From Candidatus Hodarchaeota archaeon (GTDB lineage: Archaea > Asgardarchaeota > Lokiarchaeia > Sigyniarchaeales > SOKP01): a stretch of DNA of 64,000 bases. The position numbers were made by a program, and so were the translations under genes. The stretch spans positions 168,395 to 232,394 of the forward strand of contig JBHLJY010000003.1 in the NCBI GenBank assembly GCA_048887225.1, in the 5' to 3' direction. Positions 1 to 15,356 of the stretch are shown one piece after another (the first letter of the stretch is position 1; each line of letters begins with the position of its first letter). Under the pieces are notes generated by a model, which saw only the letters and a program-made list of their open reading frames with translations, did not search any database and had not been told where the DNA came from.

Positions 1-1070
1 TTTAAGACGCTTTTAGTAATTACAAAGAATATTTTACCTCCAATTTTTAAGAATTTTGTTGATGTATAAAAGAATAAAGTAGCTATTTCTATATGTGTGA
101 TGTATTGGCTAAGTGGTTTGATTCCAAATTCTTCTGCTAAATCACGAATTTTAATTTGATAATCTTTATCACTAATATCTTTATAAGTTAACCAAGGTGG
201 ATTTCCTATTATCAGATCAAAAGAATTATATAAATTTTTTAAGTTTATAAACATCAAATTTTCGTAATGCTGAGGAAATAGCGAATCTATTACATAAACA
301 TTAATATTTGGGAGGATATCTTTCTGTGTGTCAAAATATTCTAAAAAAATTAAAAGAATATTGACTTTTGCTGTCATAGTTGCTAAAGGATTAATATCAA
401 ACCCGAATACATTATTAATTGCTTTTTGTTTTAATTTATTTGGATTCTCAGAATTAAGGATTTTAACAATTATCTTAATTAAAAAATTTCCCGAACCGCA
501 AGCTGGATCTAAAACTTTTAAACCAACATTATAAGAATCGTCTACCATTTTACGAACGAGGTTAGAAGGAGTGTAGAACTCTCCTATTTTATGTCTAGTT
601 ATGGTGAAAAATATTTGCTGGTAGATATCAAGAAATAAATCTTCATAAGCCAAACTGGTAGATTCAATTATATTATATATTTTTTCAAATAGTTTCTTGT
701 TGAAATTTGTCCAATTATAGAAATAACCGAATTCAAACAGGTTGAATGCTTCTAGATTATTATTCTTACAATCATCGTAGCATTCTTCAAAATCGATATT
801 TTGAATAAAAGAGAGTTTTATTATTATCAAGGATTTCAATAACAAGGCAAAATATGTATGTTTCAAGAAAAGATCTGAGCTTAAAGATTCAGATTCACCA
901 AAAATATTCTTGAAAGTCTTATTCCATTGTTGAAATTTTACTTCAAATTCTTTTTTCTTGGATAAGGTTTTTTTTTCAAAATATTTCATTGATTCGTAGA
1001 AAAATTTTGAACTTAGACCAAAAAATTTAGCAATATCTTCACTACCTATAAGCTTTTTAGTACTAACCAT
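1..1070 (-). CDS. N6-adenine DNA methyltransferase (gamma-class, Eco57I/TaqI-like), N-terminal part only; C-terminus runs off the left window edge
   Basis: Hand translation of the minus strand from ATG at 1070-1068 gives MVSTKKLIGSEDIAKFF... The frame stays open to base 1. Motifs: GEFYTPSNLV, VLDPACGSGNFLI (AdoMet motif I), GFDINPLA, IIGNPPWLTYKD (motif IV). It is missing from the ORF track because the window edge truncates it. Confidence 0.75.
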   Translation of the reverse strand, partial: MVSTKKLIGSEDIAKFFGLSSKFFYESMKYFEKKTLSKKKEFEVKFQQWNKTFKNIFGESESLSSDLFLKHTYFALLLKSLIIIKLSFIQNIDFEECYDDCKNNNLEAFNLFEFGYFYNWTNFNKKLFEKIYNIIESTSLAYEDLFLDIYQQIFFTITRHKIGEFYTPSNLVRKMVDDSYNVGLKVLDPACGSGNFLIKIIVKILNSENPNKLKQKAINNVFGFDINPLATMTAKVNILLIFLEYFDTQKDILPNINVYVIDSLFPQHYENLMFINLKNLYNSFDLIIGNPPWLTYKDISDKDYQIKIRDLAEEFGIKPLSQYITHIEIATLFFYTSTKFLKIGGKIFFVITKSVL

Positions 1071-1366: not shown

Positions 1367-1909
1367 CTATCGCATGAATGAGGGAAGCATTAGGTTAAAG
1401 ATTTCAGCAATTATTTTTATACTTGCTACTTCTTTAATGGTAGTTATTATTAATACACTTCTCGAAAGCTCGTCTCGATCTAGAGTGCCACCAGAATATA
1501 TTGCTAAATCATTATTAAACATCAATAAGTATTTCACATATGGATTGTTTATTACGTTAATTCCTTCAATGCTTTTTAACTCATCATAAATTCTTCGCTC
1601 TTTTTTCTCATATACATTTCGATCGCGTGTTATTAATAAAATTGGAATCCCTCTTTGAGCTGCCCTTTTTAATTCTATACTATAAAAATCATCTATTTTT
1701 GGGGTCACAATATTTAGTTGGTCTTGTGTAGTTTGGATGAACTCTATTAATTTCTCGTTAAGTAATTCCTTGTTGTCACCTTCACCTGAAGACTCTATAA
1801 CTATATTACCTACTAATGCTAACACTCTTTTTTCGAATTCTTCTATTTGTTGTTTTAATCTTCGATTTTCTAGCCGTAATTCATTTATTCGATCAGTCAA
1901 GTCAGACAA
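1367..1909 (-). CDS. hypothetical protein, N-terminal coiled coil plus globular C-terminal domain (possibly PLD-like/TrmB-C-like)
   Basis: 180-aa ORF. The N-terminus shows a heptad-like pattern (RINELRLENRRLKQQIEEFEKRV). It is the last gene of the co-directional actin-containing gene string. The domain assignment is weak. Confidence 0.5.
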   Translation of the reverse strand: MSDLTDRINELRLENRRLKQQIEEFEKRVLALVGNIVIESSGEGDNKELLNEKLIEFIQTTQDQLNIVTPKIDDFYSIELKRAAQRGIPILLITRDRNVYEKKERRIYDELKSIEGINVINNPYVKYLLMFNNDLAIYSGGTLDRDELSRSVLIITTIKEVASIKIIAEIFNLMLPSFMR

Positions 1910-2016
1910 AACACATCAACTTCTACATTCTTTTTTGTTATTTTGCTTCTTATTATTTCTTTTATTTGTTAATCTATTTATAATTTTATTATTTTTACTT
2001 TTTAGAAAAACTTAAA

Positions 2017-4518
2017 TTATAGTTTGTTCCACGGCTTACCGAAATGTAAAAATGAACTAATTGCGATACCACTTTTACATTGTTGCCTAGCTCTAAGAAG
2101 TGAAGTTCCTTGGCTTTCATTATTAAATAAACTAAGGTAAAAATTCGCTATAATACTTTGAGTATCTTCATTAAAAAATGGATATGTCCTAGTTATTATA
2201 CCTATAATACGATTATAGTCAAATTGCCTAATGATCTCACCAAAAATTTCTAAGACATTATTTAGTTTTTCTCCTTCAACGTTAAAAACCTGCGCATTAA
2301 AAAACAAAAATGGATGCGAATTAGATTTATTTTTATCTATAGCCTTCTTTATTTCATTAAAGGTTATTAGAGTGTTATCATTCGTAAGAATATAACTATC
2401 TTTGGGACTCATTCTGGAATAAAAAATATTTCCAACAAAATGAATAATATGAAAAGCCCCTTCTGAAATATTTGATAATATTTTTTCGCGAGTGGAATGT
2501 ATTCCAGATAGAATAGTAAATTGATTAACATTTTCCGTTGTATTAAAAAAATCTGTAATGTGATTTAATTCATCGTGAGCATCAGGGAACGGAAAGATTA
2601 AAGTTTTATTTTTGTACTCCTCATTCCATTTTAAAGGCCCTTTTGCATTTGTAGCTTCAATTAATAAAACATTAAATAAGGTCTTAGTTGGGATTGTAAT
2701 GGATTCCTCTTGAGCTAATTGTCCAAATTGAATACCAGCAAGAGGAGGTTCGCCGATTTTATAGCCACTTGAATATTTTAACATGAAAAATTTATCGTCA
2801 TCATACAAGAAACCAAAAGGTATTGTCATTTTATCTAAAATAAAATAAATATGAGGTATAAAATCTAACTTTTTAACTTTTAATTGCTTGAAAAAATCTC
2901 TCAATAAGTTTGGTAAGAATATATATAACAGCTTTCCAAATTCTATTATATTAAATTGATATCTCTTTTCTTTTCTTCCTGAAAAAATGTCATTAAAAAT
3001 TTCCATTATTTGATGATCGTTCCATAATTCATCAGTTATTTTTCCCTCAACTATTGCATAATCCTTAGATATCATACGAAAAGAAATCAGACCTTCTGAA
3101 TTAATCCGTATTATTGCTTGATTCAAAATAAAATCAGGATTAATCGATGTTAAATCTTCTTCAAACGAATATATTTGATTTTTAATTGATTCACACTTAT
3201 TGTATAAAGAATTTAAGTCAGTTAATTTTTCTCTAATATTTTCATCTAAATATGGGATTATTTTTTGTGCGAGATTAAAATCTTTTTCTTCGTATAAAGC
3301 GCGATAGAACATCATTCTCCAAAAATCAGCGGTTTCTAACGTGAAAAATTTGCTTTTAAATTGCCAGAGATAATTACAAGTATAGAAATAATGATAAATT
3401 TGAACCGGAGTTTGAGGTGTTTTTAAATGATTGCTTAATTTTTCCATAGATAAAAGCAAATATTTTCTTTCTTTAATATCAACAAACTTTTTACAAGCTT
3501 CAACCCATAACTCAATTAAAGAAACGTCGTACCCTAAATCTGTTTTATCCATAAAAATATCTTCCAAAAAATCATATATTTCATAAGCAATTAAAAACCG
3601 ATTTCTATTTATAGAAAAATCAACAAATTTACGGATATAACTTAGGGCAACTTCAATAGTTTGAAATTCTTTTAATTTAGTAAAAGCATATCTTATTATT
3701 ATAATAATCCATGTAAATTCTCCAATGTTATTTAAATAATAAATTAATTCCTCCAAATCAGATAGAATTACACTAAAATTCTGCTCATTTACTGAAATTT
3801 CTCTCATATTGGAGAAATCTTCTTTTAAATAATTTGGTAAGCGTTTTGCTATAATTTTATTAATAATTTGAACGAAATCTAGAGATTCCTTTGGTGAACC
3901 TTCAATGAGGTGATATTTTATATTAACATTTTCCATAAAAACAAATAGTAATAACGCTTTTGTGCTCGGTTCCAGGTTATAAAGAATTTCTCCTAAAATT
4001 TTTAAGCTAAAACGGAATAAATCTGATGAAAATATTCTTTTTCTTAAATATGCTAATAAGAATTGTAATTCGATAAGTTTGAGATAATCTCCCCTTTCTT
4101 TAACCTTAAGTGAGAATGAATTTATAAATTTAGTTATTCCTTCAATAGATAATTCATCTACTTTTATGAAACTTTTTAAAAGAATCATCCAAAAATTATT
4201 AAATAAATCAAATTCATCTAAATTGGAAAGAAAGGAAAAAAAACGTTTGTAAGCGTCAATATATCTGATTTTGTCAATTTTATCTTTTTGACTTTTCAAA
4301 GAATTTAAATAAATCCACCATGAATTTGCAATAATCATTATTAATTGACGCTTTTTTTGAGGAGCTAACCATTCTGTTTTTTCAATTTCAAAATATAAAT
4401 TAGAAAATAATCTACTTGCCCATTGATGATTAGCTGAATTAAGTAATTGCCTTCCTTGAAGTATTCCTTTTTGAAAATTCATTAAGAATTGATTTTTAAT
4501 ATCAGGACTAATTGTCAT
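2017..4518 (-). CDS. TPR-like helical repeat protein with C-terminal CHAT-like (caspase-fold) domain lacking the His/Cys dyad
   Basis: 833-aa ORF. The C-terminal ~270 aa follow the CHAT pattern (MTIPFGFLYDD ... FHIIHFVGNI ... ITFNEI ... PFLFFNAQVF ... IIGIITRTYPFFNEDTQSIIANFY ... LLRARQQ). Asn (2428-2430) and Gln (2290-2292) sit where the catalytic His and Cys are expected. The N-terminal ~550 aa are helical and repeat-like. Confidence 0.6.
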   Translation of the reverse strand: MTISPDIKNQFLMNFQKGILQGRQLLNSANHQWASRLFSNLYFEIEKTEWLAPQKKRQLIMIIANSWWIYLNSLKSQKDKIDKIRYIDAYKRFFSFLSNLDEFDLFNNFWMILLKSFIKVDELSIEGITKFINSFSLKVKERGDYLKLIELQFLLAYLRKRIFSSDLFRFSLKILGEILYNLEPSTKALLLFVFMENVNIKYHLIEGSPKESLDFVQIINKIIAKRLPNYLKEDFSNMREISVNEQNFSVILSDLEELIYYLNNIGEFTWIIIIIRYAFTKLKEFQTIEVALSYIRKFVDFSINRNRFLIAYEIYDFLEDIFMDKTDLGYDVSLIELWVEACKKFVDIKERKYLLLSMEKLSNHLKTPQTPVQIYHYFYTCNYLWQFKSKFFTLETADFWRMMFYRALYEEKDFNLAQKIIPYLDENIREKLTDLNSLYNKCESIKNQIYSFEEDLTSINPDFILNQAIIRINSEGLISFRMISKDYAIVEGKITDELWNDHQIMEIFNDIFSGRKEKRYQFNIIEFGKLLYIFLPNLLRDFFKQLKVKKLDFIPHIYFILDKMTIPFGFLYDDDKFFMLKYSSGYKIGEPPLAGIQFGQLAQEESITIPTKTLFNVLLIEATNAKGPLKWNEEYKNKTLIFPFPDAHDELNHITDFFNTTENVNQFTILSGIHSTREKILSNISEGAFHIIHFVGNIFYSRMSPKDSYILTNDNTLITFNEIKKAIDKNKSNSHPFLFFNAQVFNVEGEKLNNVLEIFGEIIRQFDYNRIIGIITRTYPFFNEDTQSIIANFYLSLFNNESQGTSLLRARQQCKSGIAISSFLHFGKPWNKL

Positions 4519-4544
4519 TAAGATTAATTACCCATTTTTTATGA

Positions 4545-5693
4545 TTACCCTTTATATTCTGGATTTGGTTTCCACCCTTCTTGTAACTGTTTTTTTGAGT
4601 ATAATATTGATGCCCCAATCCACGACATATTTTCACGACCAGAAACTGCAAACACATTAATTTTATCTCTTATTTTTTCGGAAAAATACTTAGTTAATTC
4701 AAGCTTCAATCTCTCCTTTAATCCAGGAATTAAACTACCTCCCCCCGCAAGAATAATATTAGGAAGTAATTCTTCCCAATTCTCTCGATCCCAGGATTTG
4801 ATAACTTTAACTATTGCTTCATCTAATCCAAAATAATCTATATGAATTAATCCTGGATTAAATAAAGGTTCAGATAACATGAATCGCTCCTCGTTTATTT
4901 TTAAGCTGGATCCATCGGGAAAATTAACTTTTTGGTCGTAATTAGTAAGTCCATCTCTTATGCTATTGCTTTCACCTTCAGCATCTAATACACATAGTGA
5001 ATATTTATCTTTAATTTCTTTTGCAAGCCATTTATCAAGATAAAAATTCTCTTCTGACCCCTTTCTAGTTAATATCATATTAAGGAAATAATTTGTCAAA
5101 TCCTTCCCTGCTATAGGAAAGATATCTCGTGCCATAATATTTGTGAATCCGTGAAAAATCGTGGAAAAATAAGTATTGGATTCTCCCATATTAACTACAA
5201 CTCCGGTGGTTTTCTTTAAAGTTTGTAAAATAGCTTGACTTTCAGATAAAAATAATAAATAAGGGAAGTTTAAGTCTCGAAAAAAAATTTGTTCCAACTT
5301 AGTTTTTTCCAATTCTGTCATAAAAAAAGGAGAAATCACAATTATTGATTGTTTATTTTGATATTCAGATTGGATATTTAATTGTTGATAATAATAATGA
5401 AAAAATTTTGAAAAAATATTGTAATTATTCTCTTTTTTAAACTCATGAATATTTAATATATTTTGGTATTTTAAGGCATTAAGGCCATATAAGTGCCTTT
5501 CAGTATTTTCTTCAATAAAAAGTTCAGCAAGTCCATCAACTACATCTGATTCAAATATATAATCTGTAGCATCCACATGAACGCTAGGTACAATAATTTC
5601 TGGTGAATCATCACCAGCCCAGCCTAAACGAAAAGTACTACTTCCGATGTCTAAAATCAAAGGTCTTAATTGCTTATTATCAGCAGATAACAT
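4545..5693 (-). CDS. actin-family protein (Asgard actin-related protein)
   Basis: 382-aa ORF with actin-fold motifs: LILDIGSSTFRLGWAGDDSPEIIVPSV (phosphate-1, compare actin DNGSG..AGFAGDDAP), VVVNMGESNTY (divergent phosphate-2), IILAGGGSLIPGLKERL (adenosine motif) and WIGASILYS near the C-terminus. Confidence 0.85.
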   Translation of the reverse strand: MLSADNKQLRPLILDIGSSTFRLGWAGDDSPEIIVPSVHVDATDYIFESDVVDGLAELFIEENTERHLYGLNALKYQNILNIHEFKKENNYNIFSKFFHYYYQQLNIQSEYQNKQSIIVISPFFMTELEKTKLEQIFFRDLNFPYLLFLSESQAILQTLKKTTGVVVNMGESNTYFSTIFHGFTNIMARDIFPIAGKDLTNYFLNMILTRKGSEENFYLDKWLAKEIKDKYSLCVLDAEGESNSIRDGLTNYDQKVNFPDGSSLKINEERFMLSEPLFNPGLIHIDYFGLDEAIVKVIKSWDRENWEELLPNIILAGGGSLIPGLKERLKLELTKYFSEKIRDKINVFAVSGRENMSWIGASILYSKKQLQEGWKPNPEYKG

Positions 5694-5725
5694 ATTAAAT
5701 GAGATATTTGATTAAAATTAATAAT

Positions 5726-6508
5726 TTATAACGAAAAAAGCTCTTTTTCATGAATATATTCGTCTGTCAATCTTTTTAATTGATATTCTTTAACTTGTAA
5801 TTCAAGCATCCCTAAAACCTTTTTAAATTCAAGGGACATGGTTTCAATATTTACGCCAGAAACCTTTTCGATTTCATCCCTTTTCGTCTTAAATTGACTT
5901 AAATTCAATTTTATTTTATCGAATAGATTGTTTATTGAAGAAATTAAATCCTCGGTGTTTTTCTTGGTGAATTTTCGCATTTTCCTTAATATAGCTAATA
6001 TATTGCTAATACTATTTTCCCATTGATTATATCTTTCGTTATAACCTTTCATAAAATCCTCTAAAAATACTTGTAAATTCTTATAAATATTATATTTAGG
6101 TGGTGTAGTCTCAATAGGTTTTTGAATGGGGGCACTACTTTTAGTTGTTTTTCTTTCAGATATAGGGATATCTTCTATAAGATAATCTTCAACAATTTCG
6201 CTTTTTCTCTCATAAGATAACTGTGGTTCAATTTTTTCTTCTGCTTTTTCTTCACGATGATACCAAGTTTCTTCAGATACTCCTGTTAATAATCCCTGTA
6301 AATCTATTTGAGCCTCCTTGGCAGAGCTTAAAGCAGAACTCAATGCCGAGTCTAATGATAATTCCGTTTCTGGTATTTCTGCAGCTTTTAAAGTAGCACC
6401 CGAAGAAATTTCTAGTCCTTTTTTCTTGGTCGTTTTTAGAGCATCTTCCAATGAGGTGTCTGTTTTTTTCTTTTTAGACGATTTTTTTTTCTTTTTATTC
6501 TTAGCCAT
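5726..6508 (-). CDS. hypothetical protein with polybasic N-terminus (MAKNKKKKKSSKKKK) and helical/coiled-coil C-terminal half
   Basis: 260-aa ORF ending 32 nt upstream of the actin-family gene on the same strand. No recognisable enzymatic motif. Confidence 0.55.
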   Translation of the reverse strand: MAKNKKKKKSSKKKKTDTSLEDALKTTKKKGLEISSGATLKAAEIPETELSLDSALSSALSSAKEAQIDLQGLLTGVSEETWYHREEKAEEKIEPQLSYERKSEIVEDYLIEDIPISERKTTKSSAPIQKPIETTPPKYNIYKNLQVFLEDFMKGYNERYNQWENSISNILAILRKMRKFTKKNTEDLISSINNLFDKIKLNLSQFKTKRDEIEKVSGVNIETMSLEFKKVLGMLELQVKEYQLKRLTDEYIHEKELFSL

Positions 6509-6631: not shown

Positions 6632-7033
6632 TTACTCTAAGGGGATTATCTCTACTTCAAGAGCATCTCCTTCGATTTTTAAAATTTCTTTGAGCTTCTC
6701 AAGGTCCATCTCTTTTGGTCTCGGTCCAATCACAGTCCACATAGCGGTTTTCTCTTTTTCAATAGTTAACGATTCTCCATAAACTAGCGAAATCCCGTGA
6801 TTTCCAAAAGTCGTAGCTATTTTTGCCAATGATCCAGCTTCATCCTTCATTAATATTCTAAATTTAAGAGAATCACCTTTAATTCCAACTGGGGTTATTC
6901 TGATTTCTTTTGTATCTGAATCTGCGATCATCATTAACTGTGAGTTCTCAGTCAGTCCTAGACTTTTTCTAATCGTCATTGGAATTACTATTCTTCCTCT
7001 ATTATCTATAACCAAAAACTTGACATCCTTCAT
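6632..7033 (-). CDS. AbrB/SpoVT-type DNA-binding domain fused to ACT domain (putative small-molecule-responsive regulator)
   Basis: 133-aa ORF. The N-terminus VIDNRGRIVIPMTIRKSLGL fits the SpoVT/AbrB swapped hairpin. The C-terminus ILMKDEAGSLAKIATTFGNHGISL fits an ACT-like fold. Confidence 0.6.
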   Translation of the reverse strand: MKDVKFLVIDNRGRIVIPMTIRKSLGLTENSQLMMIADSDTKEIRITPVGIKGDSLKFRILMKDEAGSLAKIATTFGNHGISLVYGESLTIEKEKTAMWTVIGPRPKEMDLEKLKEILKIEGDALEVEIIPLE

Positions 7034-7199: not shown

Positions 7200-9374
7200 T
7201 TATGTTTTATGGGCCTTCAACTTCACTGTAAGGTCTCTTGCTCGCTTTGAATACCAGACCAATAAATCTCCAGCGTTTTCGGGCTTAAAATATTCGCCAC
7301 CGCATAAAGTTGCAGCACGAGTCATTAATGCGTCATTAGGATTCCCCAACCCAACTATATAAATGACTACATTTAAATTCTCAGAGAATCTCTTTGCTGC
7401 TTCAAAAAACGCATTACCATCAGTAGGTTCACCATCAGTTAACAAAACAATCATGGTTGGCTGATCTGGGGATATTTTTTCAAATTCGTTTAGAATTAAT
7501 TGAGCTTGTTCCATAGCATGTCCCATATTGGTGGCCTGTCCATATGAAGAGGCGATTCTATCAACGATCATCTTCGCAGCCTCCTCTAGAATTCCTTTTT
7601 TACCACTAGCGGAATCCATATAAAATCCACCTCCAAAGGGTAGTACTTGGGCCTCATCAGCAAATCGGATAACAGCAACTTTTTCTCCAAAACCACGACC
7701 AACTTTTTCACTTAGGAATAGAACTGCTGCAAATGCAGCCGAAATTCTTCTTGGGATGTTGATGCCATCCTTGAATTTTTTTAAGAATTCTTGAATTTCA
7801 CGAGATTCCATTGCTGCCTTAATACCCTCAATTGCTGGCGCAATATTAGTTACAAGCACATCACGTGCCATCATGGATCGACTTATGTCAATTATCAAAA
7901 TAGCATTAAAAGGTATCAAACCCAATGGTGATAGGGTTAATGTTGTATTTTTCGTAATTTGAGCTAATATATCACCGGTTAAGTCTGGAACGCAATCAAT
8001 AATAGAACAAGCAATATTAACTGCGTTCCATCTTAATTTAATTCCCTTGAAAATGATATAATTTGAAAGCCAATCCTTTAAAGCTTCTACACTCTGTCTA
8101 GCATTGCTTATAATTTCCCACATATTCTCGCCAGAAATGGGTGAAACCCCTAAAGAAACGCTTTGTAAAGGAATGATTTGTCGTTGATTTTTTGAAATTT
8201 TTACTTCAAAGCTACCAATTCCAGACGCTTCTAAAATTTCACTATCAATAATAATTATATTATCAGGAACTGTTTCTACAACAACAACCTTACCCGCTCC
8301 AATTGCTCCCGTAAGTTCATCTTCGAATGCTAAAACATCATTATTTTGAATTGAAATTGTATGTTGCGTTCTTGGACTTACTTGACAAAAACCATTTAAA
8401 TTTGGCTGCGATTGGACTTCTAATATTATTTCAGACGCTTTTTGAATTGGTGGCTCTGTAGAATATATTACGATTTGTTCAGCTTGAATATTCGTATCTT
8501 CTAATGTGTCTTTGCTCATTCTTATCTCAGTATCGCTAATTTGCGCTTGATCTATTCTCGCAGAACCCATAGATCTCGTTAGAGGGTCTTCCCATGCGAT
8601 CAACATACCTTGTCCAAGGCCTAATTGTTGCAAAACGTTAAGACTTAGTTGTACTCGACCTCCTTCTATGTTATTATCTATAACAGGAGTTTGAATTATC
8701 CCTTTTTTCTGATTTTTTAACATATTTATATCAATCCTATTAGGATAAGGTTCTACTGGAGCTACTGGAGCGATGGTTTCTTGCGTCGGCATTGGTTGAA
8801 GTGTTGATGGTGGTGGTGGCATTGAAGAAGGAGGGGCCCTTATTTGAGGAGGAGGTTTAAACTGTGGTGTTGGAGTAAATTGTGTGGGTGGGGGTATTTG
8901 TTTAGGTGGTGGTGGGTGTGCGGGCAGAGGTGCTTGTATAGGTTGTGTTGGTTTTATAGGTGGAGGTGTTGGTGCGAGCTGAGATGATGGAGGTGGTTGA
9001 GGTACAGGTGTAAATTGAGGTGCAACACTTGGTTCTGGTGGTTGAAGAGACGGTTGAGAAGTTAAAGCGGATTTTGATGGTACTGTAGGTTCGGCTTCTT
9101 GTGAAATAGGTGGAGCTGCGGTGCTTGGTCTTATAATAACTTCAATACCTGTAAATTCTATTTCATCAATGATGTTTTTTGAAATCATCCCAGCAAAATC
9201 TAATGCAGAATTAGAAATTTCAGCAAGAGCAATAGTACTTCTGCCATTCTCTGGATTAATAATTTCTACAGACGATCTTGTTGAAATACCAAGTTTTTTA
9301 GCATTGGACGGACTAATAATTGCTTTATTTTTGGTTTCGTCTTTAATATCTACAAAAATCTTTATTTCTGGCAT
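7200..9374 (-). CDS. von Willebrand factor A (vWA) domain protein with ~120-aa polyproline linker and three AbrB/CDC48-N-like barrel repeats
   Basis: 724-aa ORF. A MIDAS-type motif ILIIDISRSMM plus MIVLLTDGEPTDG sits in the C-terminal domain. Residues ~85-205 are Pro-rich (PPPSSQLAPTPPPIKP...HPPPPKQIPPP...MPPPPS). There are three similar segments of the type ISPSNAKKLGIS / LSLNVLQQLGLGQG / VSPRTQHTISIQ. Confidence 0.7.
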   Translation of the reverse strand: MPEIKIFVDIKDETKNKAIISPSNAKKLGISTRSSVEIINPENGRSTIALAEISNSALDFAGMISKNIIDEIEFTGIEVIIRPSTAAPPISQEAEPTVPSKSALTSQPSLQPPEPSVAPQFTPVPQPPPSSQLAPTPPPIKPTQPIQAPLPAHPPPPKQIPPPTQFTPTPQFKPPPQIRAPPSSMPPPPSTLQPMPTQETIAPVAPVEPYPNRIDINMLKNQKKGIIQTPVIDNNIEGGRVQLSLNVLQQLGLGQGMLIAWEDPLTRSMGSARIDQAQISDTEIRMSKDTLEDTNIQAEQIVIYSTEPPIQKASEIILEVQSQPNLNGFCQVSPRTQHTISIQNNDVLAFEDELTGAIGAGKVVVVETVPDNIIIIDSEILEASGIGSFEVKISKNQRQIIPLQSVSLGVSPISGENMWEIISNARQSVEALKDWLSNYIIFKGIKLRWNAVNIACSIIDCVPDLTGDILAQITKNTTLTLSPLGLIPFNAILIIDISRSMMARDVLVTNIAPAIEGIKAAMESREIQEFLKKFKDGINIPRRISAAFAAVLFLSEKVGRGFGEKVAVIRFADEAQVLPFGGGFYMDSASGKKGILEEAAKMIVDRIASSYGQATNMGHAMEQAQLILNEFEKISPDQPTMIVLLTDGEPTDGNAFFEAAKRFSENLNVVIYIVGLGNPNDALMTRAATLCGGEYFKPENAGDLLVWYSKRARDLTVKLKAHKT
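8760..9125 (-). repeat. low-complexity proline-rich coding tract (GC-rich island inside the vWA gene)
   Basis: The plus strand reads as reiterated ggtgg/ggagg/tggtgg units. On the minus strand these encode P-rich sequence. The GC content is visibly higher than in the flanks. Confidence 0.8.
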
Positions 9375-9597: not shown

Positions 9598-9987
9598 TTA
9601 AAGAGCGGGGTATCTTTTACCTATTTCTCCTGCATAATACCTAAAGACAGTGACAACTTTTCCTAAATCTGCTATCTTTCTTGAAGCGCCCATAAGGAAG
9701 AACCGACCAGCAGCGCTAAGTATGATAAATGCGTCCTCACCTCTTAATACTACTTCCAACATATTATGATATCCCATTGTATCAACAGCGTCAGAACCAC
9801 TCTTCATAACAACTGCACTTAAACTTGAGAATAAATCAGGTTCAATTTCATAGCTTGGAATACAGCTAAAGGCCAATTGTAAACCTTCTCTAGTCACTAA
9901 CGCGAGCGCTTCAAGCTCAGTGTGTTCAGTAATATTCCCTAAAAAATTCGATAAGCTTTTAGCCTCGTCTGGAGTTAAACTAACCAT
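9598..9987 (-). CDS. Roadblock/LC7 (MglB-like) domain protein
   Basis: 129-aa ORF with the pattern LSNFLGNITEHTELEALALVTREGLQLAFS ... AFIILSAAGRFFLMGA, typical of Roadblock/LC7. Confidence 0.7.
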   Translation of the reverse strand: MVSLTPDEAKSLSNFLGNITEHTELEALALVTREGLQLAFSCIPSYEIEPDLFSSLSAVVMKSGSDAVDTMGYHNMLEVVLRGEDAFIILSAAGRFFLMGASRKIADLGKVVTVFRYYAGEIGKRYPAL

Positions 9988-10141: not shown

Positions 10142-11011
10142 TTATTTAAACTCTCCAAGCTGCGTTTTAATTTGATCTTTAAGGATTTGCTTTTTATCTT
10201 TATATTCAGTGGCTCCTTTCACTTTTTTTGATGATTCACTTTTTAGAAACTCAATGGCGACAATCTTTCCATGCTCGGAAAGAACTCGTGGAGAATACCC
10301 TTCAGCAAAAAAAATACCCTCAGGGATTGATCCTACTTCTTCAATCTTTTTCTCAGTCTGTTTTTTACCTAAGAAGGTTGTAACTTTTTCGACAACCGAA
10401 TATGCGTGATTACCAATTATTATTAATTCTCTTTCATAGCCGTCAGGAATTTTTATTTCTTCTAATTTCTGCATAATTTGATCAAAATCTATTGGCTTTT
10501 CCTCTTGAACATAGCTTTCCATTGATTCTTTACCTGTATATAACGGTCCTATATTAGAAGTCGAAGATTGAATTGTCTTGCTACCCGCTATATTCATACC
10601 TTCGGCAGGGGTAGGTGCTTCAAATGTAGCTTTTTCCCTTAAAGGATGCCCTCCACCTCCACCTGCCGCTTTAGCTGCTTTTTCTTCTTTAATCTCTTTT
10701 GCTATACCTGCTTCTGTTTTCCCTCCAATGACTTTTAGAAACTCATCCGTTTCTTCTGCTTCGTCAAGGGGCACGACAGCATAATGCATTCCAACTTGTC
10801 CTCTAATTTCTTGACTCCTTTTTGCACCTATAAATTTTGAACGGACGGATGATTGTATCCCCTTCCACAGAAAAACTTTTCGAAGATCATCCGCTACTAT
10901 GACGTAACACTCATCGGTTTTTAGAAGGTCTTTAACAGCCCCATCTGAGGTTAGTTCTGTGGTTGTACCGTCTGGATTGATTAAAAAAACCTGTAGGCCC
11001 AATTTCCTCAA
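10142..11011 (-). CDS. gelsolin-domain protein with extra C-terminal domain (1DGelX-like architecture)
   Basis: 289-aa ORF with a TTG start. The N-terminus DECYVIVADDLRKVFLWKGIQSSVRSKFIGAKRSQEIR fits the gelsolin/ADF-H-like core. A Gly-rich linker follows. The C-terminal domain (IPDGYERELIIIGNHAYSV...) is shared with 63310-63966. Confidence 0.65.
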   Translation of the reverse strand: MRKLGLQVFLINPDGTTTELTSDGAVKDLLKTDECYVIVADDLRKVFLWKGIQSSVRSKFIGAKRSQEIRGQVGMHYAVVPLDEAEETDEFLKVIGGKTEAGIAKEIKEEKAAKAAGGGGGHPLREKATFEAPTPAEGMNIAGSKTIQSSTSNIGPLYTGKESMESYVQEEKPIDFDQIMQKLEEIKIPDGYERELIIIGNHAYSVVEKVTTFLGKKQTEKKIEEVGSIPEGIFFAEGYSPRVLSEHGKIVAIEFLKSESSKKVKGATEYKDKKQILKDQIKTQLGEFK

Positions 11012-11164: not shown

Positions 11165-12730
11165 TTAACTTCTAAGTAAATCTGAGACTGCCGAATTGAT
11201 ATGATTAATCATATCCATGGCTGTAAATCTAGATCCAACTTTACTTTTACAATATTCTCCGAAATAACCGTTTAAAAATGCTGCTGAACAAGCAGATCGG
11301 AAGGTATCATTATTCATCGTAAGAAAACATCCGCATAAACCAGCTAAAACGTCTCCAGTGCCTCCAATAGACATTTCAGGACATCCAGTTTTATTAATTT
11401 TCAATTTTTTTCCATTGCTAATGTAATCGTATGGTCCTTTTACTAATAAAGTGAGGTCTAGCTTTTTTGCTAAATCAAAAATAATTTTTCCTCTCCCTTC
11501 AATATCATCATAAGGAGGTAAATCGATACCTATCATTATTTTTAATTCACCCTCGTGAGGAGTTAAAATAACTGGTTGACCTTTGAGCAAATTAAGATAG
11601 TTACTCACTAATTTTAATGCATCAGCATCTAAAACAAATGACTTTTTATCTTGTCTTAATTTTTCAAGTAATTTAACTAGAAGTTCTTCAGTTTCTTTCT
11701 CTTCTCCTATTCCTGGACCAATAATTATTGAATTAGACCAATCAATCAACCACGAGATCTCATCTAATGCATTTTTATTCAGGAAATCGCCTGGACTAGT
11801 TCTTACGATCATATTTGGGGAATAACTCCTAACTACATCTCCTATAACTTCTGGTGTATAGGTTATAACTAAGTCAACTCCAAAATTAATACTAGCTAAA
11901 GACGAGTATGTGGGGGCGCCCGAGTAATTTTTCGACCCTCCTACTATTAAAATTCTCCCAAACTGCCCTTTATGGGTATCAGATTTTCTAACTTTCAGAG
12001 TAGGAATTAGATCTCCTCTTCCTACAAATAATCTTGCTTCTAGAGGGATCCCTATTGATTTAACGATCATTTCATTAATGTATTTAGTATTAATCTTCAT
12101 ACCTTTCTTAATTCGATGGAAGGTTATAACTAAATCCGATTTTACAGCCTTATCTAAAACCTTACCATTGTCCGGATTTAAACCGGAAGGTACGTCAATT
12201 GAAACGACTTTAATATTTTCTTCTTCCCTTAGAGCATTAATCAAATCTACTGCTGAAGAAATTGGCTCTCTGATGTTTCCACTTATTCCAGTTCCTAACA
12301 AACCATCTATAATTAAATTATATCTTTTTTTCTCTTTAATAAGTGTGTCAATTTCTGTTAATTCAGCCGAATCCATTATAATTTTTATTTGTATTGAATG
12401 ATTAAGATGTTTTGTAATGATATTCCAATTTAAATTTGCCTCTTTAGTTCTTATATTTTCTGGGGCACCTAAAAGGATAACCAATACCTTTATACCATAT
12501 GACGATAAATGACGAGCGACCACAAATCCATCACCCCCATTATTTCCCGTACCGCAAAATATGGCAACTTTAGAATTTTCTTCCAGATTATACCTTTTGA
12601 TGACTTCATTAGCAAAAGAATAACCTGCACACTCCATCAAATAACTTTTTGGTATTCCTAACCATTCTGTGTTATTATCCAAAATCGCAATTTCTTCAGA
12701 TGATATCTTTTCAGAATTTAATCGTTCCAT
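11165..12730 (-). CDS. nnr: bifunctional NAD(P)H-hydrate repair enzyme (NAD(P)HX epimerase / ADP-dependent dehydratase)
   Basis: 521-aa ORF. The YjeF-N motif FCGTGNNGGDGFVVARHL is present. The C-terminal carbohydrate-kinase part has GPGIG ... LTPHEGE ... GGTGDVLAG. Confidence 0.85.
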   Translation of the reverse strand: MERLNSEKISSEEIAILDNNTEWLGIPKSYLMECAGYSFANEVIKRYNLEENSKVAIFCGTGNNGGDGFVVARHLSSYGIKVLVILLGAPENIRTKEANLNWNIITKHLNHSIQIKIIMDSAELTEIDTLIKEKKRYNLIIDGLLGTGISGNIREPISSAVDLINALREEENIKVVSIDVPSGLNPDNGKVLDKAVKSDLVITFHRIKKGMKINTKYINEMIVKSIGIPLEARLFVGRGDLIPTLKVRKSDTHKGQFGRILIVGGSKNYSGAPTYSSLASINFGVDLVITYTPEVIGDVVRSYSPNMIVRTSPGDFLNKNALDEISWLIDWSNSIIIGPGIGEEKETEELLVKLLEKLRQDKKSFVLDADALKLVSNYLNLLKGQPVILTPHEGELKIMIGIDLPPYDDIEGRGKIIFDLAKKLDLTLLVKGPYDYISNGKKLKINKTGCPEMSIGGTGDVLAGLCGCFLTMNNDTFRSACSAAFLNGYFGEYCKSKVGSRFTAMDMINHINSAVSDLLRS

Positions 12731-12836
12731 AACAATTAATTTTAAGATACTGAATTAAAAAACATTTGTTAATTATTACATCTTGAATTATATCATAAAA
12801 AAATGGTGAATATGCATAACTAACTATAAAGAAGAT

Positions 12837-13985
12837 ATGGATGATGCAAAAGAGCGATTAAAAGCCTTTTGGGATCACGAACTCATCGATCGCCCTTGCA
12901 TTTCTTACCGCTATCCTATTTACGGAAAGAAATTACCTAAGGGAACTAATGTGATTGAATACTTTTTTCCATGGTTTATGGCAAAAAATTGGGACGATAT
13001 TCAAAAATTTCTAAAAGATTTTGAGGATATATCAAAATGCTTCTATTTTGGAGGTGAATGCATTCCACGATTATGGCCCAATTATGGTCCAGGTATTATG
13101 GCTTCAGTACTCGGTGTTGAGCCTGAATTCAATCCAAATTCTAAAACAGTCTGGTTTCATAGAGAAACGAAAGTTGATGATATAATTCCATTATTAGAAG
13201 GTGTAAAATTAAACAGAAATAATCCTTGGTATGATCGGCTTCTAAGAATTACAGAATACGCAGCTAAACAAGCGGGAAAAGATTATTGTATTGCTGTAAC
13301 CGATCTTGGTGGAGTTTTAGATATCTTATCATCGTTCTTAGGACCTACAAAAATTATATTAACGATGAGGCGACAACCTGAAATCATTGATACATGTCGG
13401 GTAATTATTCTTGAAAAATTATTAAAAGTCTATGACGATCTTCAAATCATTATAGAACGCTACGGGGATGGCTGCAGTGCTTGGATAGATATTTGGTGCT
13501 CAAAACGCTGGTATCCTATTCAATCTGATTTTACTGCTTTTCTTTCGCCTAAATGGTTTAAAAGATTTGCTTTATCAGATATCATTGCTCAAGCTGAACA
13601 TATGGATTATGCTATTTATCATTTAGATGGTCCAGACGCTTTAAAACATCTTGATTCTCTATTAACTGTAGATTCAATAACAGGCATTCAATGGGTTCCA
13701 GGGGCAGGAAGAGAGCTTGCATGTAGCGATGCTTGGATGCCAGTCTATAAAAAAATACAATCAACGGGGAAGTTTGTGATAATTTATGTTTTTGAAATAC
13801 TAAAATCACTCTCACACTTTTATAAAGTGTTAGATCCAAAACTTCTATTCCCTATTAATATATCTATGGATCCTGTAAAAGCTCAATTCTATTTGCCTAA
13901 ATTTGTTGGTGGGCAAGGAGGTTCTGGAAATTTTGGAAAATTTAAAAGAACAATGCGAAAATATTTGAAGAACAAAAATATTTAA
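12837..13985 (+). CDS. hypothetical protein (possibly uroporphyrinogen-decarboxylase/MtaA-like TIM barrel)
   Basis: 382-aa ORF with an ATG start. There is only weak resemblance to the URO-D family (WPNYGPGIMASVLG), so the function is not supported. Confidence 0.45.
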   Translation: MDDAKERLKAFWDHELIDRPCISYRYPIYGKKLPKGTNVIEYFFPWFMAKNWDDIQKFLKDFEDISKCFYFGGECIPRLWPNYGPGIMASVLGVEPEFNPNSKTVWFHRETKVDDIIPLLEGVKLNRNNPWYDRLLRITEYAAKQAGKDYCIAVTDLGGVLDILSSFLGPTKIILTMRRQPEIIDTCRVIILEKLLKVYDDLQIIIERYGDGCSAWIDIWCSKRWYPIQSDFTAFLSPKWFKRFALSDIIAQAEHMDYAIYHLDGPDALKHLDSLLTVDSITGIQWVPGAGRELACSDAWMPVYKKIQSTGKFVIIYVFEILKSLSHFYKVLDPKLLFPINISMDPVKAQFYLPKFVGGQGGSGNFGKFKRTMRKYLKNKNI

Positions 13986-14007
13986 TTTTAAAAGAATTAT
14001 ATAAAAA

Positions 14008-14153
14008 TGCCGGTGGCGGGAATCTCAGACAGAGCAAAATGCTACTTCCATTTGAGCCCGCGACCTCCAGATTATGAGTCCAGCACATCTAGTCTGACCC
14101 ATTTTTCAGAATGAGTATGTGTCTGGCGCTATAACCAACTAAGCCACACCGGC
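14008..14153 (-). tRNA. tRNA-Met(CAT) (elongator Met or Ile2-type) with two introns
   Basis: Minus-strand cloverleaf. Acceptor GCCGGTG/CACCGGC plus discriminator A. D-arm GCTTAGTTGGTTATAGC. The anticodon arm CCAGA-CTCATAA-TCTGG is interrupted by a 43-nt insert (about 14078-14120). The T-arm GCGGG-CTCAAAT-CCCGC is interrupted by a 29-nt insert (about 14021-14049). The mature length is 74 nt. Confidence 0.8.
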
Positions 14154-14168
14154 TTTTCAATTTCATCA

Positions 14169-14241
14169 AGCCCCCGGCGGGGTTTGAACCCGCGACCTTT
14201 GCCTTACCAAGGCAACGCTCTACCAGCTAAGCAACGGAGGC
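14169..14241 (-). tRNA. tRNA-Thr(GGT)
   Basis: 73-nt minus-strand cloverleaf: acceptor GCCTCCG/CGGGGGC (one G-U pair), D-arm GCTT-AGCTGGTA-GAGC, anticodon arm TTGCC-TTGGTAA-GGCAA, T-arm GCGGG-TTCAAAC-CCCGC. Confidence 0.9.
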
Positions 14242-14252
14242 TCTTTTCAATT

Positions 14253-14270
14253 TTTAGATAAATATCTAAA
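14253..14270 (-). promoter_or_regulatory. candidate TATA/BRE region of the tRNA-Thr/tRNA-Met transcription unit (perfect palindrome TTTAGATA-AA-TATCTAAA)
   Basis: The palindrome has 8-bp arms and lies 12-29 nt upstream of the tRNA-Thr 5' end. That position fits an archaeal TATA box. The AT-rich context makes this weak. Confidence 0.3.
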
Positions 14271-14402
14271 TCATTATTAAATTAAAAATTTTATTTGGAA
14301 ATGATTCGAAAAAAATCAAACTAATTCTTATTTTTTATTAATTTTTAAATTAAGAATAATTAGTATAATTCTCGCTCTGCTTAAGATTATACATCTTTAT
14401 GA

Positions 14403-15356
14403 TTATTGCGACTTACTTAAAATTTTATATGCTACGTATATAAATGATTCATTAATATTTTCTCCTGTTTTTGCTGATGTAAGAATATAATGAAAACCAA
14501 GCTCATCAGCAACAGATTTAATTTCTTCTTCGCTTATTACAATCTTATCTTTTAAATCAGATTTATTTCCTACTATTACAATTGGAATATTAGAGGATAA
14601 GTCTTTTGTAATATCAGCATACCAAGATTTAATACTCTTAATATTTCCTTGACGAGTACGATCTATAACTATAAATGCTGCATTTGCTCCACTATAAAAT
14701 TGAGCTCTATACGGCGCCATAAATTGGATTTGTCCCGCAATATCCCAAATAACGAAAGTTATTTTAGTTTTTTCATTTAAATTATAATCCTTTTTTGAGA
14801 TTTCAACTCCTAATGTAGAAATATAATCATCTTTAAATTCATTTTTAGTAAATGTTCTTATTATAGAACTTTTTCCAACTTGATAATCTCCCGTAATAAT
14901 TACTTTTTTTGTAAAGTCTCCTGTCGAAAGAGTCCCCTCTTTTGTTTTTGAAAGAAATTGAATCGCATCTGGGATTTCAAGAGAAATATCTTCCTGTCCC
15001 TCTAATATTAATTCAATTTTTCCTGCTATGTGCTCTGATAGCACTCTTAATTGAACATCAGGAGTAGATATTTCAGTTATAGCTGTTAAAATTGAATTTG
15101 GTCCCTGCGAACAAAATACAAATTTCTTATCGCTTGTAGTAGTCACATTAAAAAAGTTATTTTCAACACCAAATTCATCTTTTAATTGATCGATATACTT
15201 TTCTACGTAGGTAGAAATTCCACCTATAACAATATCGTCTTGCTCCTCTCCTTCTGAAATAATGACAAGGCCGTCTATATCGCATACAGCTACTACTATT
15301 ACTCCTTCTATATTATTCATATAATTTAATACTAAAGTTTTCAGTTGTTCTTTCAT
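14403..15356 (-). CDS. Roadblock/LC7 domain fused to Ras/Rab-like small GTPase
   Basis: 317-aa ORF. The N-terminus is Roadblock-like (LNYMNNIEGVIVVAVCDIDGLVIIS). The C-terminus carries G1 GDYQVGKSS, switch-I YISTLGVE, G3 WDIAGQ, G4 GNKSD and G5 TSAKTG. Confidence 0.85.
   Translation of the reverse strand: MKEQLKTLVLNYMNNIEGVIVVAVCDIDGLVIISEGEEQDDIVIGGISTYVEKYIDQLKDEFGVENNFFNVTTTSDKKFVFCSQGPNSILTAITEISTPDVQLRVLSEHIAGKIELILEGQEDISLEIPDAIQFLSKTKEGTLSTGDFTKKVIITGDYQVGKSSIIRTFTKNEFKDDYISTLGVEISKKDYNLNEKTKITFVIWDIAGQIQFMAPYRAQFYSGANAAFIVIDRTRQGNIKSIKSWYADITKDLSSNIPIVIVGNKSDLKDKIVISEEEIKSVADELGFHYILTSAKTGENINESFIYVAYKILSKSQ

Follow-up and report, generated by a model that had tools for sequence, protein, structure and literature searches.

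The window analysed here, 64,000 nucleotides of DNA from Candidatus Hodarchaeota archaeon (GenBank assembly GCA_048887225.1, contig JBHLJY010000003.1, positions 168,395 to 232,394 of the forward strand), contains a compact minus-strand gene cluster in which a divergent actin-related protein (ARP) is encoded next to a large protein that carries TPR-like helical repeats and a CHAT/caspase-fold domain. We propose that the cluster encodes a dedicated Asgard ARP module, in which the ARP would be a stable subunit on the CHAT-like protein, a predicted pseudoprotease scaffold (pseudoCHAT), joined by two smaller proteins, here called p260 and p180. On the sequence comparisons and structure models described below, the probability of this reading was put at roughly 0.45. 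In the direction of transcription, the genes encode an AbrB/ACT-domain protein (6632–7033, 133 amino acids), p260 (5726–6508, 260 amino acids, from the open reading frame call), the ARP (4545–5693, 382 amino acids, Pfam Actin), the CHAT-like protein (2017–4518, 833 amino acids, Pfam CHAT) and p180 (1367–1909, 180 amino acids, TTG start, weak PLDc_2), all on the minus strand. The last four are separated by spacers of 32, 26 and 107 nucleotides (nt), and the G+C content of the region is 25–31%. An earlier note on this DNA had described these four as a tight unit; its coordinates and spacers agree exactly with the open reading frame list and the clustering stands, but the AbrB/ACT gene, which adjoins p260 in 73 of 74 assessable species, had been overlooked. 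That the unit is an operon is suggested by the spacing and by overlaps between start and stop codons.

Conservation of the neighbourhood was followed by scanning one genome per GTDB species with an alignment of the ARP family. This gave 105 loci, the best 80 of which were kept and searched by tblastn with nine window proteins; a junction between two genes was counted only where the contig was long enough. Members of the ARP family in these Loki-type genomes are 59–96% identical and make up more than 100 protein clusters, nearly all from metagenome-assembled genomes (MAGs) of Promethearchaeota (Asgard). The order and strand of the five genes, AbrB/ACT–p260–ARP–CHAT-like–p180, were unchanged wherever the contig reached. 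p260 was adjacent to the ARP gene in 74 of 74 assessable loci and the ARP gene to the CHAT-like gene in 66 of 66, while the CHAT-like gene and p180 were neighbours in 59 of 63, p180 being absent from three. Median gaps at the four successive junctions of the cluster were 38, 51, 24 and 99 nt, and the gap between the ARP and CHAT-like genes ranged from 1 to 63 nt across 69 species. Mean column identity in the Loki-type alignments was 68–71% for the ARP, the CHAT-like protein and p180, and all four cluster proteins are under strong constraint.

The Loki-type genomes share a syntenic stretch of about 12 genes, unrelated housekeeping genes among them; downstream of the cluster it takes in genes for an Eco57I/MmeI-like methyltransferase, a DEAD-box helicase and an Arf-like GTPase. 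Because it reaches such unrelated genes, gene order alone is weak functional evidence within this lineage. The positions of the breaks are informative: they never fall within the ARP/CHAT-like pair, and almost never within the five-gene core.

A profile of the CHAT-like family, run on 1.84 billion representative proteins in search of more distant relatives, returned 129 matches. Besides the Loki-type family these included twelve full-length, highly divergent relatives (E 1e-101 to 1e-24), the weaker matches being ordinary CHAT proteins aligned over the C-terminal domain only. The contigs of eight divergent relatives (L086–L093) served as a deep set; those with NCBI names are labelled 'Promethearchaeota archaeon'. 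Their CHAT-like proteins show 19–27% identity and their G+C contents span 30–67%; the flanking genes are related neither among the loci nor to those of the window. In eight of eight loci a Pfam-Actin gene precedes the CHAT-like gene, with distances from the end of the one to the start of the other of +1, +5, −4, 0, −8, +4, −4 and 0 nt. A homolog of the p260 C-terminal domain was likewise found in all eight (27–41% identity). Seven loci carry it upstream, and in L089 it comes downstream of the CHAT-like gene; that of L088 lies at the contig edge and hence has no gene call. p180 homologs were found in six (32–45% identity), and AbrB/ACT homologs upstream in two (L086 and L090, 43–44% identity), the other six having none. 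The deep core is therefore p260-like, ARP and CHAT-like, usually with p180-like. With unrelated flanks and such a range of G+C content, inherited synteny alone cannot explain the adjacency of the ARP and CHAT-like genes, and the p260-like gene of L089, moved yet kept, argues for selection on membership and not on order. Whether the neighbourhood is conserved beyond this genome had been the first check proposed in the earlier note; it is, in 80 species and in eight distant loci.

One sublineage of the deep set (L087, L091, L092 and L093) has a further conserved gene directly 3′ of the p180-like gene, encoding a multi-pass membrane protein of about 410 amino acids (11330–12583, 13204–14433, 13178–14422 and 13471–14234 of the respective loci). 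These proteins are 33–47% identical between loci; neither the window nor the Loki-type loci yielded a homolog. Their position hints at a membrane link of the module in that sublineage.

The ARP matched Pfam Actin (PF00022) with 164.7 bits over residues 9–380, against a cut-off of 27, and the MreB profile with 13 bits; 152 PDB actin-family chains were matched at E < 1e-5. The PDB ranking was headed by actins, not by Arp2 or Arp3, with HC1 lokiactin and yeast actin as best matches at 140–143 bits. Lokiactin is about 58–63% identical to eukaryotic actin, with 63% between HC1 lokiactin and yeast actin; the ARP is 28% identical to HC1 lokiactin and 26% to yeast actin, in line with the divergent, Arp-like paralog suspected in the earlier note.

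By sequence, the nucleotide-binding loops of the ARP are kept: the P1 loop (LDIGSS, 5637–5654) retains the DxG[ST] pattern, the P2 loop its Gly and the adenosine loop (AGGGSLIPGL, 4719–4748) its GG..PG pattern, all on the minus strand. Residues D15, G17, G170, G317 and G324 of these loops are conserved, and G170 is invariant. The divergence of the P2 loop, which the earlier note had picked out, proved to be a family trait, NMGES in place of DSGDG at residues 168–172 (5178–5192, minus strand) and N-[MI]-G-E-x across the family. In actin, hydrolysis is driven by Q137, H161 and D154/D157. The position of Q137 is occupied by E151 in the window ARP, invariant in the Loki type; seven of the eight deep loci have G, D, A, H or P there, and Gln is retained only in L089; H161 corresponds to Y175 and varies elsewhere in the clade; D154/D157 correspond to N168/E171, with H, Y or F for D157 in the L087 type, which has also lost the equivalent of actin K18. 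Given the low identity and hydrolysis residues that are not conserved across the clade, the ARP does not appear to be a conventional actin or lokiactin. Arps that serve as stable subunits of complexes typically show this combination of retained loops and lost hydrolysis residues.

The cluster-linked ARPs of the deep loci are 26–52% identical among lineages, and cluster-linked ARPs score 166–414 bits with one another as against 102–174 bits with the two actins. They share S/A-W-[DE]-R where actins have KCDVD (SWDRENWE in the window, 4773–4796, minus strand), and their D-loop region is longer than that of actin and conserved in sequence. These bit-score comparisons are consistent with one old ARP clade, inherited along with the CHAT-like gene.

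For the CHAT-like protein, Pfam CHAT was matched with 27.6 bits (cut-off 24) over residues 538–725. An AF2 model built with 51 homologs (pLDDT 83.5, pTM 0.75) consists of 22 helices in TPR-like pairs, then a small beta unit, then an alpha/beta domain; the TPR-like repeats occupy residues 1–448 (3175–4518) and the CHAT/caspase-fold domain, assigned from the model and Foldseek, residues 530–833 (2020–2931), both on the minus strand. Foldseek against the PDB placed DdvA, Csx29/TPR-CHAT, human and C. elegans separase and SAVED-CHAT at the top (E 1e-7 to 7e-5, probability 1.0), followed by LGN/Pins-type TPR proteins; the matches to Csx29, SAVED-CHAT, separase and metacaspase together span E 1e-7 to 5e-2. 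Global TM-scores were about 0.2 (0.13–0.21 for separase), which denotes similarity at the level of architecture only, low values being expected of multi-domain proteins with differing domain angles. Searches of PDB sequences with the protein and with its family profile gave no usable match, including to separase.

Genuine CHAT proteins were matched by HMMER over the C-terminal domain at E 1e-10 to 1e-4. Among them, P0294, P0302 and P0304 carry the dyad motifs as IIHY[SA]GH ... LN[AS]C (e.g. IIHYSGH...FLNACSS), whereas the window protein reads IIHFVGN ... FFNAQ in the same register, with Asn697 (2428–2430) at the position of the catalytic His and Gln743 (2290–2292, both minus strand) at that of the catalytic Cys. 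The two motifs fall on consecutive long predicted strands (residues 691–700 and 737–746) and are 46 residues apart, which is within the usual range. N697 and Q743 do not vary among 51 family sequences, and eleven of the twelve distant full-length relatives lack both dyad residues, the twelfth (P0256) keeping the Cys with Tyr in place of His. By these comparisons and the model, the family is a conserved pseudoprotease. The label TPR-CHAT-like given in the earlier note thus holds for fold and architecture, as judged by Pfam and Foldseek, but not for the catalytic His-Cys dyad. With the dyad lost, the protein was read as a binding scaffold; the kept Asn/Gln pair points to a pocket still in use, presumably for binding.

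p260 had no Pfam, NCBIfam or PDB sequence match, whether searched as a protein or as a family profile. In its AF2 model, residues 1–50 are disordered and the strongly conserved C-terminal domain forms a long alpha-hairpin (residues 141–259, 5732–6088, minus strand) of two helices, 141–217 (77 residues) and 226–259 (34 residues), with pLDDT of about 90; Foldseek of this model gave insignificant coiled-coil matches only (best E-value 2). The N-terminus is polybasic (MAKNKKKKKSSKKKK, 6458–6508, minus strand), and the start MAKKKKK recurs in several deep homologs and almost throughout the Loki type. The linker is variable, disordered and rich in Pro, Glu and Lys, with a linear motif in the Loki type (PQLSxExKxxIxExYxxEDxP; in the window PQLS..E.Y..ED.P, 6155–6226, minus strand). 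p260 is a probable adaptor or tether. A weak resemblance to the PBC domain in 21 of 28 orthologs (best E 7e-4, below cut-off) was judged to be helical or compositional similarity. Most Loki-type orthologs also carry SAKKTETTLQ in a predicted amphipathic helix (6290–6355 in the window, residues ~52–73). Its reading as the LKKTET motif of thymosin-beta/WH2 was rejected: the window protein has AKEAQID at this place, the deep homologs are without the motif, and the likeness is probably coincidental. In L091 (8212–8853) and L092 (8056–8790), the linker of the p260-like protein contains true polyproline runs.

p180 begins with a leucine-zipper-like helix, a predicted coiled coil (residues ~1–33, minus strand), followed by an alpha/beta domain of PLD/TrmB-like type. 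PLDc_2 was matched by 21 of 28 orthologs (best E 7e-6), the window protein itself staying below cut-off at 19.9 bits, and Regulator_TrmB weakly by two of the 28; neither the sequence nor the family profile gave a usable match in the PDB. In place of HxK, N-V-[RK] is found in the family and Y-V-K in the window, so that the catalytic His is absent and the domain appears to be non-catalytic. The coiled-coil/PLD-like label of the earlier note is accordingly upheld for the coiled coil and for the domain family, but without the His of HxK. The protein ends in LPSFMR (1370–1387, minus strand), with L175, P176, F178, M179 and R180 invariant. The same six residues close all six deep homologs at 32–45% identity, the 32%-identical high-GC ones included, as would be expected of a docking peptide.

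The protein encoded upstream of p260 scored 32.9 bits with Pfam MazE_antitoxin/AbrB and 29 bits with ACT, 37.5 bits with TIGR01439 (AbrB) and 94.9 bits with PRK08577, the last below its own cut-off. By sequence, a pairing of AbrB/SpoVT and ACT domains is of the type of a small-molecule-responsive DNA-binding regulator, and in the Loki-type lineage the gene is likely to be both the regulator and the first gene of the unit. Its gap to p260 is 123 nt in the window, against the median of 38 nt. Little could be learned from scanning the AT-rich spacers 5′ of the genes in about 70 species for Shine-Dalgarno and TATA-like strings; the sole hint was that TATA-like strings were commonest (72%) 5′ of the AbrB/ACT gene. 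Sigma-70 promoter and terminator signals in the cluster were at background level, the models used being bacterial and not applicable to archaea.

Taken together, the module may be pictured as follows. The core would consist of the ARP and the TPR-like/dead-CHAT scaffold, whose genes are translationally coupled and which most likely form a stable complex. Within it, the ARP would be a structural or regulatory subunit that binds nucleotide, in contrast to a dynamic, ATP-hydrolysing filament former; this role is favoured by the drift of catalytic residues across the clade and by the coupling to a scaffold of ~95 kDa. The binding part of p260 would be the long helical hairpin at its C-terminus, and the flexible linker and polybasic N-terminus would tether the complex to an anionic surface, be it a membrane or nucleic acid. 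p180 would be a coiled-coil dimer with a non-catalytic PLD/TrmB-like domain that docks through the LPSFMR tail, whether onto the TPR groove, into the dead active-site pocket or into the hydrophobic cleft of the ARP. Clan CD proteases, which include separase and metacaspases, cut after Arg or Lys, so a chain ending in ..FMR looks like a product or pseudo-substrate; in the dead pocket the tail could be a mimic of either, with Arg at P1, as securin is in separase. In the Loki-type and high-GC lineages the AbrB/ACT regulator would control the unit.

Several points weigh against this picture. In Lokiarchaeum ossiferum, the homologues other than lokiactin, which may include the present ARP family, are transcribed several-fold below lokiactin (PMC9834061). 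p180 is not obligatory, since it is missing from three of 63 Loki-type and two of eight deep loci, and the polybasic N-terminus is absent from the p260-like proteins of L092 and L093. Asn697 and Gln743 were assigned by motif register with the HMMER CHAT relatives and the predicted strands, not by residue-level structural superposition. The ARP itself is of actin length without large insertions and retains a segment of hydrophobic-plug length, so that it might polymerise by itself.

An ARP filament in the style of crenactin, ParM or MamK, with the neighbouring genes as dedicated regulators or cargo adaptors, was considered somewhat unlikely. p260 would here link the filament to membrane or DNA, the C-terminal peptide of p180 would cap or sequester, and the TPR-pseudoCHAT protein would bundle or nucleate. 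Besides actin size and plug length, the preserved nucleotide loops and a highly conserved whole surface fit such a filament. Prokaryotic actin-family filament loci are typically small clusters in which C-terminal peptides of lineage-specific adaptors bind the cleft of the actin fold (ParR on ParM, arcadin-2 on crenactin), a pattern that the invariant LPSFMR tail matches. The residues that couple polymerisation to hydrolysis, however, vary or are lost (Q137, H161, D154/D157, and K18 in the L087 type), and the longer D-loop region is conserved in sequence instead of being a flexible loop. A repeat search within 13 kb of the cluster found no centromere-like or operator-like iterons. Finally, translational coupling to the ~95-kDa scaffold suggests 1:1 stoichiometry, not a polymer with substoichiometric regulators.

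Upstream of the AbrB/ACT gene, also on the minus strand, lie genes for a vWA/polyproline protein (7200–9374, 724 amino acids, Pfam VWA), a Roadblock/LC7 protein (9598–9987, Pfam Robl_LC7), a gelsolin-domain protein (10142–11011, 289 amino acids) and the NAD(P)HX repair enzyme Nnr (11165–12730), the last in the same syntenic block. The gelsolin-domain protein, an N-terminal gelsolin domain with an extension, matches Lokiarchaeota 2DGel (7whg) at E 2.6e-6 and resembles 1DGelX. The four genes are co-linear with the core in most of the 80 species, although the block is missing beside the core in some loci, and their mutual junctions are tight in order: Nnr–gelsolin was adjacent in 45 of 47, gelsolin–Roadblock in 50 of 51 and Roadblock–vWA in all assessable loci.

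It was therefore asked how far these genes belong with the core, the earlier note having seen an ~11-kb block enriched in cytoskeleton-type genes. We consider it unlikely that the Loki-type core forms one cytoskeleton-regulating supercluster with the gelsolin (1DGelX-like), Roadblock and vWA/polyproline genes. The co-linear, co-directional run of nine genes in most species and the high adjacency at the upstream junctions fit this, as do the polyproline tracts that also occur in some p260-like linkers (L091 and L092) and the ability of Thor 1DGelX to sever and nucleate actin in vitro (PMC7444086). Against it, the upstream genes are set apart by median gaps of 170–270 nt, which suggest separate transcription units, and the vWA–AbrB/ACT junction was adjacent in 45 of 62 loci, the other 17 having insertions of 1.1–8.3 kb. 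The gelsolin, Roadblock, vWA and Nnr genes were found near the module in none of the eight deep loci, and the continuation of synteny into the methyltransferase, DEAD helicase and Arf GTPase genes looks like a slowly rearranging chromosomal region. The genes of the earlier block are thus real and co-linear in the Loki type, but the block looks unlike one functional unit: the gelsolin–Roadblock–vWA association is specific to the Loki-type lineage and loosely linked to the ARP core.

Two features of this flank were noted in passing. Residues 83–211 of the vWA protein (8742–9128) form a tract of ~130 residues that is 36% proline, across which the GC skew changes sign; polyproline here and in the p260-like linkers of L091 and L092 could provide ligands of profilin type. 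The 45 nt before the start of Nnr (12731–12775, minus strand) are strongly conserved in 42 species (..AAaCtAAAAg.TTTTTTAT.TCAaaATCTTAAAtTaAATTGTT), far more than any other spacer of the block, and are probably a promoter with a leader or an operator.

A TPR-CHAT conflict or proteolytic-signalling system, with the CHAT protein as effector or sensor and the actin-fold protein as ATPase switch, is highly improbable. Its attraction lies in the top structural matches (Csx29/TPR-CHAT, SAVED-CHAT and DdvA) and in the adjoining AbrB-type regulator, but the dyad is lost family-wide with Asn/Gln invariant in the Loki type, PADLOC gave no defence-system match, and no Cas, cyclase or sigma-factor genes were called in the loci that have gene calls. 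The module is moreover present in every assessable species and apparently inherited vertically at 50–70% identity, unlike patchy defence islands. Just as little can be said for gene order as inherited synteny without functional coupling: the ~12-gene Loki-type synteny with its housekeeping genes would suit it, but a core of three or four genes persists with all flanks different at 19–33% protein identity and 30–67% G+C, start and stop codons overlap or abut, and L089 changed the order while keeping the membership.

The proposed module was then compared with known systems. In agreement with the earlier note, Pfam, NCBIfam, PDB sequence and Foldseek searches showed no likeness of any partner to profilin, gelsolin or Arp2/3 subunits, and no ARPC-family match to Pfam or NCBIfam was obtained among the neighbours. 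The crenactin–arcadin cluster of Thermoproteales and the bacterial ParMRC and MamK–MamJ loci are alike in that an actin-fold gene sits in a small conserved cluster with lineage-specific, mostly coiled-coil or disordered partners, and by analogy with the peptides of arcadin-2 and ParR the conserved end of p180 could dock on the actin fold. The partners found here, however, are similar to arcadins, ParR or MamJ in neither sequence nor fold; the ARP is instead of the eukaryotic actin/Arp type with degenerate hydrolysis residues, and a TPR-pseudoprotease as the dominant partner has no precedent in those systems. ParMRC-type loci combine a DNA-binding adaptor with centromere-like repeats; here an AbrB-type DNA-binding gene adjoins the module, but no iterated repeats were found within 13 kb and the AbrB/ACT gene is missing from six of the eight deep loci.

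Eukaryotic Arp complexes offer a second comparison. In Arp2/3, in dynactin with Arp1/Arp11 and in the HSA–Arp units of INO80, SWR1 and SWI-SNF, as apparently in the module, a divergent Arp with altered catalytic residues is dedicated to fixed partners, and HSA helices are of the length class of the ~77-residue helix of p260. No homolog of ARPC1–5, of a dynactin subunit or of an HSA/helicase protein was detected among the neighbours of the ARP. Separase shares with the CHAT-like protein a large helical-repeat region followed by a caspase-fold domain (9hma, 5mz6), and the disordered region of p260 or the ...FMR tail of p180 could fill the substrate groove much as securin does. The CHAT-like protein differs in having no detectable sequence similarity to separase, Asn/Gln for His/Cys, about half the size and an association with an ARP, not cohesin. 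TPR plus CHAT architecture is also shared with Csx29/TPR-CHAT (Craspase), SAVED-CHAT and DdvA (8eex_B, 7y85_D, 8d9f_A, 8tl0, 8rw5), from which the module differs in lacking the catalytic dyad and neighbouring CRISPR, cyclic-nucleotide and sigma-factor genes; neither gRAMP/Cas7-11 nor Csx30/31 genes nor a CRISPR array were called in the loci with gene calls.

Lokiactin and other Asgard ARPs belong to the same protein family and phylum, but at only 28% identity to HC1 lokiactin the module ARP stands apart, with S/A-W-[DE]-R for KCDVD, the longer D-loop region and the altered P2 loop. Three actin homologues besides lokiactin have been reported in L. ossiferum (PMC9834061), and ARPs other than lokiactin occur in all Asgard archaea, their functions being stated as unknown (PMC7444086). 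In a survey of the eukaryotic signature proteins of Asgard archaea, most of the genes were placed outside conserved neighbourhoods, and the only operons named were ESCRT and Roadblock–Rab–DENN (bioRxiv 10.1101/2020.10.19.343400). No mention of an ARP/CHAT or ARP/TPR neighbourhood was found in the full-text literature or recent reviews searched, a scope that takes in few of the subscription papers and supplements. As far as can be told, an ARP paired with a separase/Csx29-like pseudoprotease has not been described before.

An unrecognised ARP complex that is ancient within Asgard, with the ARP permanently bound to a pseudoprotease scaffold and accompanied by a disordered tether and a coiled-coil subunit, is offered as a tentative interpretation. 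If true, the eukaryotic multi-subunit Arp machines would gain in it a first archaeal counterpart, in kind and not by homology; dedicated ARP complexes would predate eukaryogenesis, and a separase-type caspase-fold/TPR scaffold would already have been tied to the actin family in archaeal ancestors. An ARP module of three to five genes that persists from 96% down to ~20% protein identity provides the first named candidate partners, and with these the function of an archaeal ARP becomes accessible to ordinary experiments. The module further brings to light an Asgard-wide family of separase/Csx29-like pseudoproteases; should these prove to be ARP scaffolds, they would bear on the origin of eukaryotic Arp complexes and perhaps of separase-type proteins.

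Some observations on the genomes and neighbours of the Loki-type loci were also made. About 300 nt downstream of p180, the window holds the N-terminal 353 amino acids of an Eco57I/MmeI-like N6-methyltransferase of ~730 amino acids (3–1070, minus strand, running off the window start). The same gene is found 3′ of p180 in 46 of 51 assessable species at 50–72% identity, often followed by the DEAD-box helicase gene and an Arf-like GTPase gene whose products are 84–100% identical (L006–L085). It is unusual for a methylase of restriction-modification type to act as a core syntenic gene. The nearest relative of the window, L006 (JBHLQY010000038.1), has 91–100% protein identity across nine genes and is labelled 'Candidatus Thorarchaeota', and sister MAGs of the same submission (JBHL accessions) are labelled Hod-, Hermod-, Odin- or Heimdall- although their ARPs are 59–66% identical; the submitter taxonomy of these loci looks unreliable for gauging how widely the module has spread. 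In the MAG YT1_053, two contigs (L053 and L068) each carry an ARP ortholog, 62–63% identical to that of the window, followed by a CHAT-like gene, which reflects either a duplicated module or a mixed bin.

Elsewhere in the window, positions 16325–44086 contain a large archaeal-type isoprenoid/mevalonate gene cluster. It encodes a thiolase, HMG-CoA synthase, HMG-CoA reductase, a UbiX-like flavoprotein, a UbiD-like decarboxylase, an aconitase-X-type dehydratase, a GHMP (mevalonate) kinase, a fusion of amino-acid kinase and FMN dehydrogenase (IPK+IDI2-like), a polyprenyl synthetase, a geranylgeranyl-reductase-like flavoprotein and a cis-prenyltransferase. Two genes on the minus strand (14403–15356 and 51126–52094) encode small GTPases of the Ras/Roc family with N-terminal extensions of ~150 amino acids; that of the second is a Roadblock/LC7 domain, making it a Roadblock–GTPase fusion. 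A second Eco57I/N6_Mtase protein, of 640 amino acids with a TaqI-like specificity domain, is encoded at 54477–56399 (minus strand), and a separate N6/N4 DNA methylase at 48899–49972 (plus strand). The 436-amino-acid protein encoded at 19173–20483 (minus strand) gave weak, sub-cut-off matches of coiled-coil type (TACC_C, GAS) and may be another uncharacterised coiled-coil protein.

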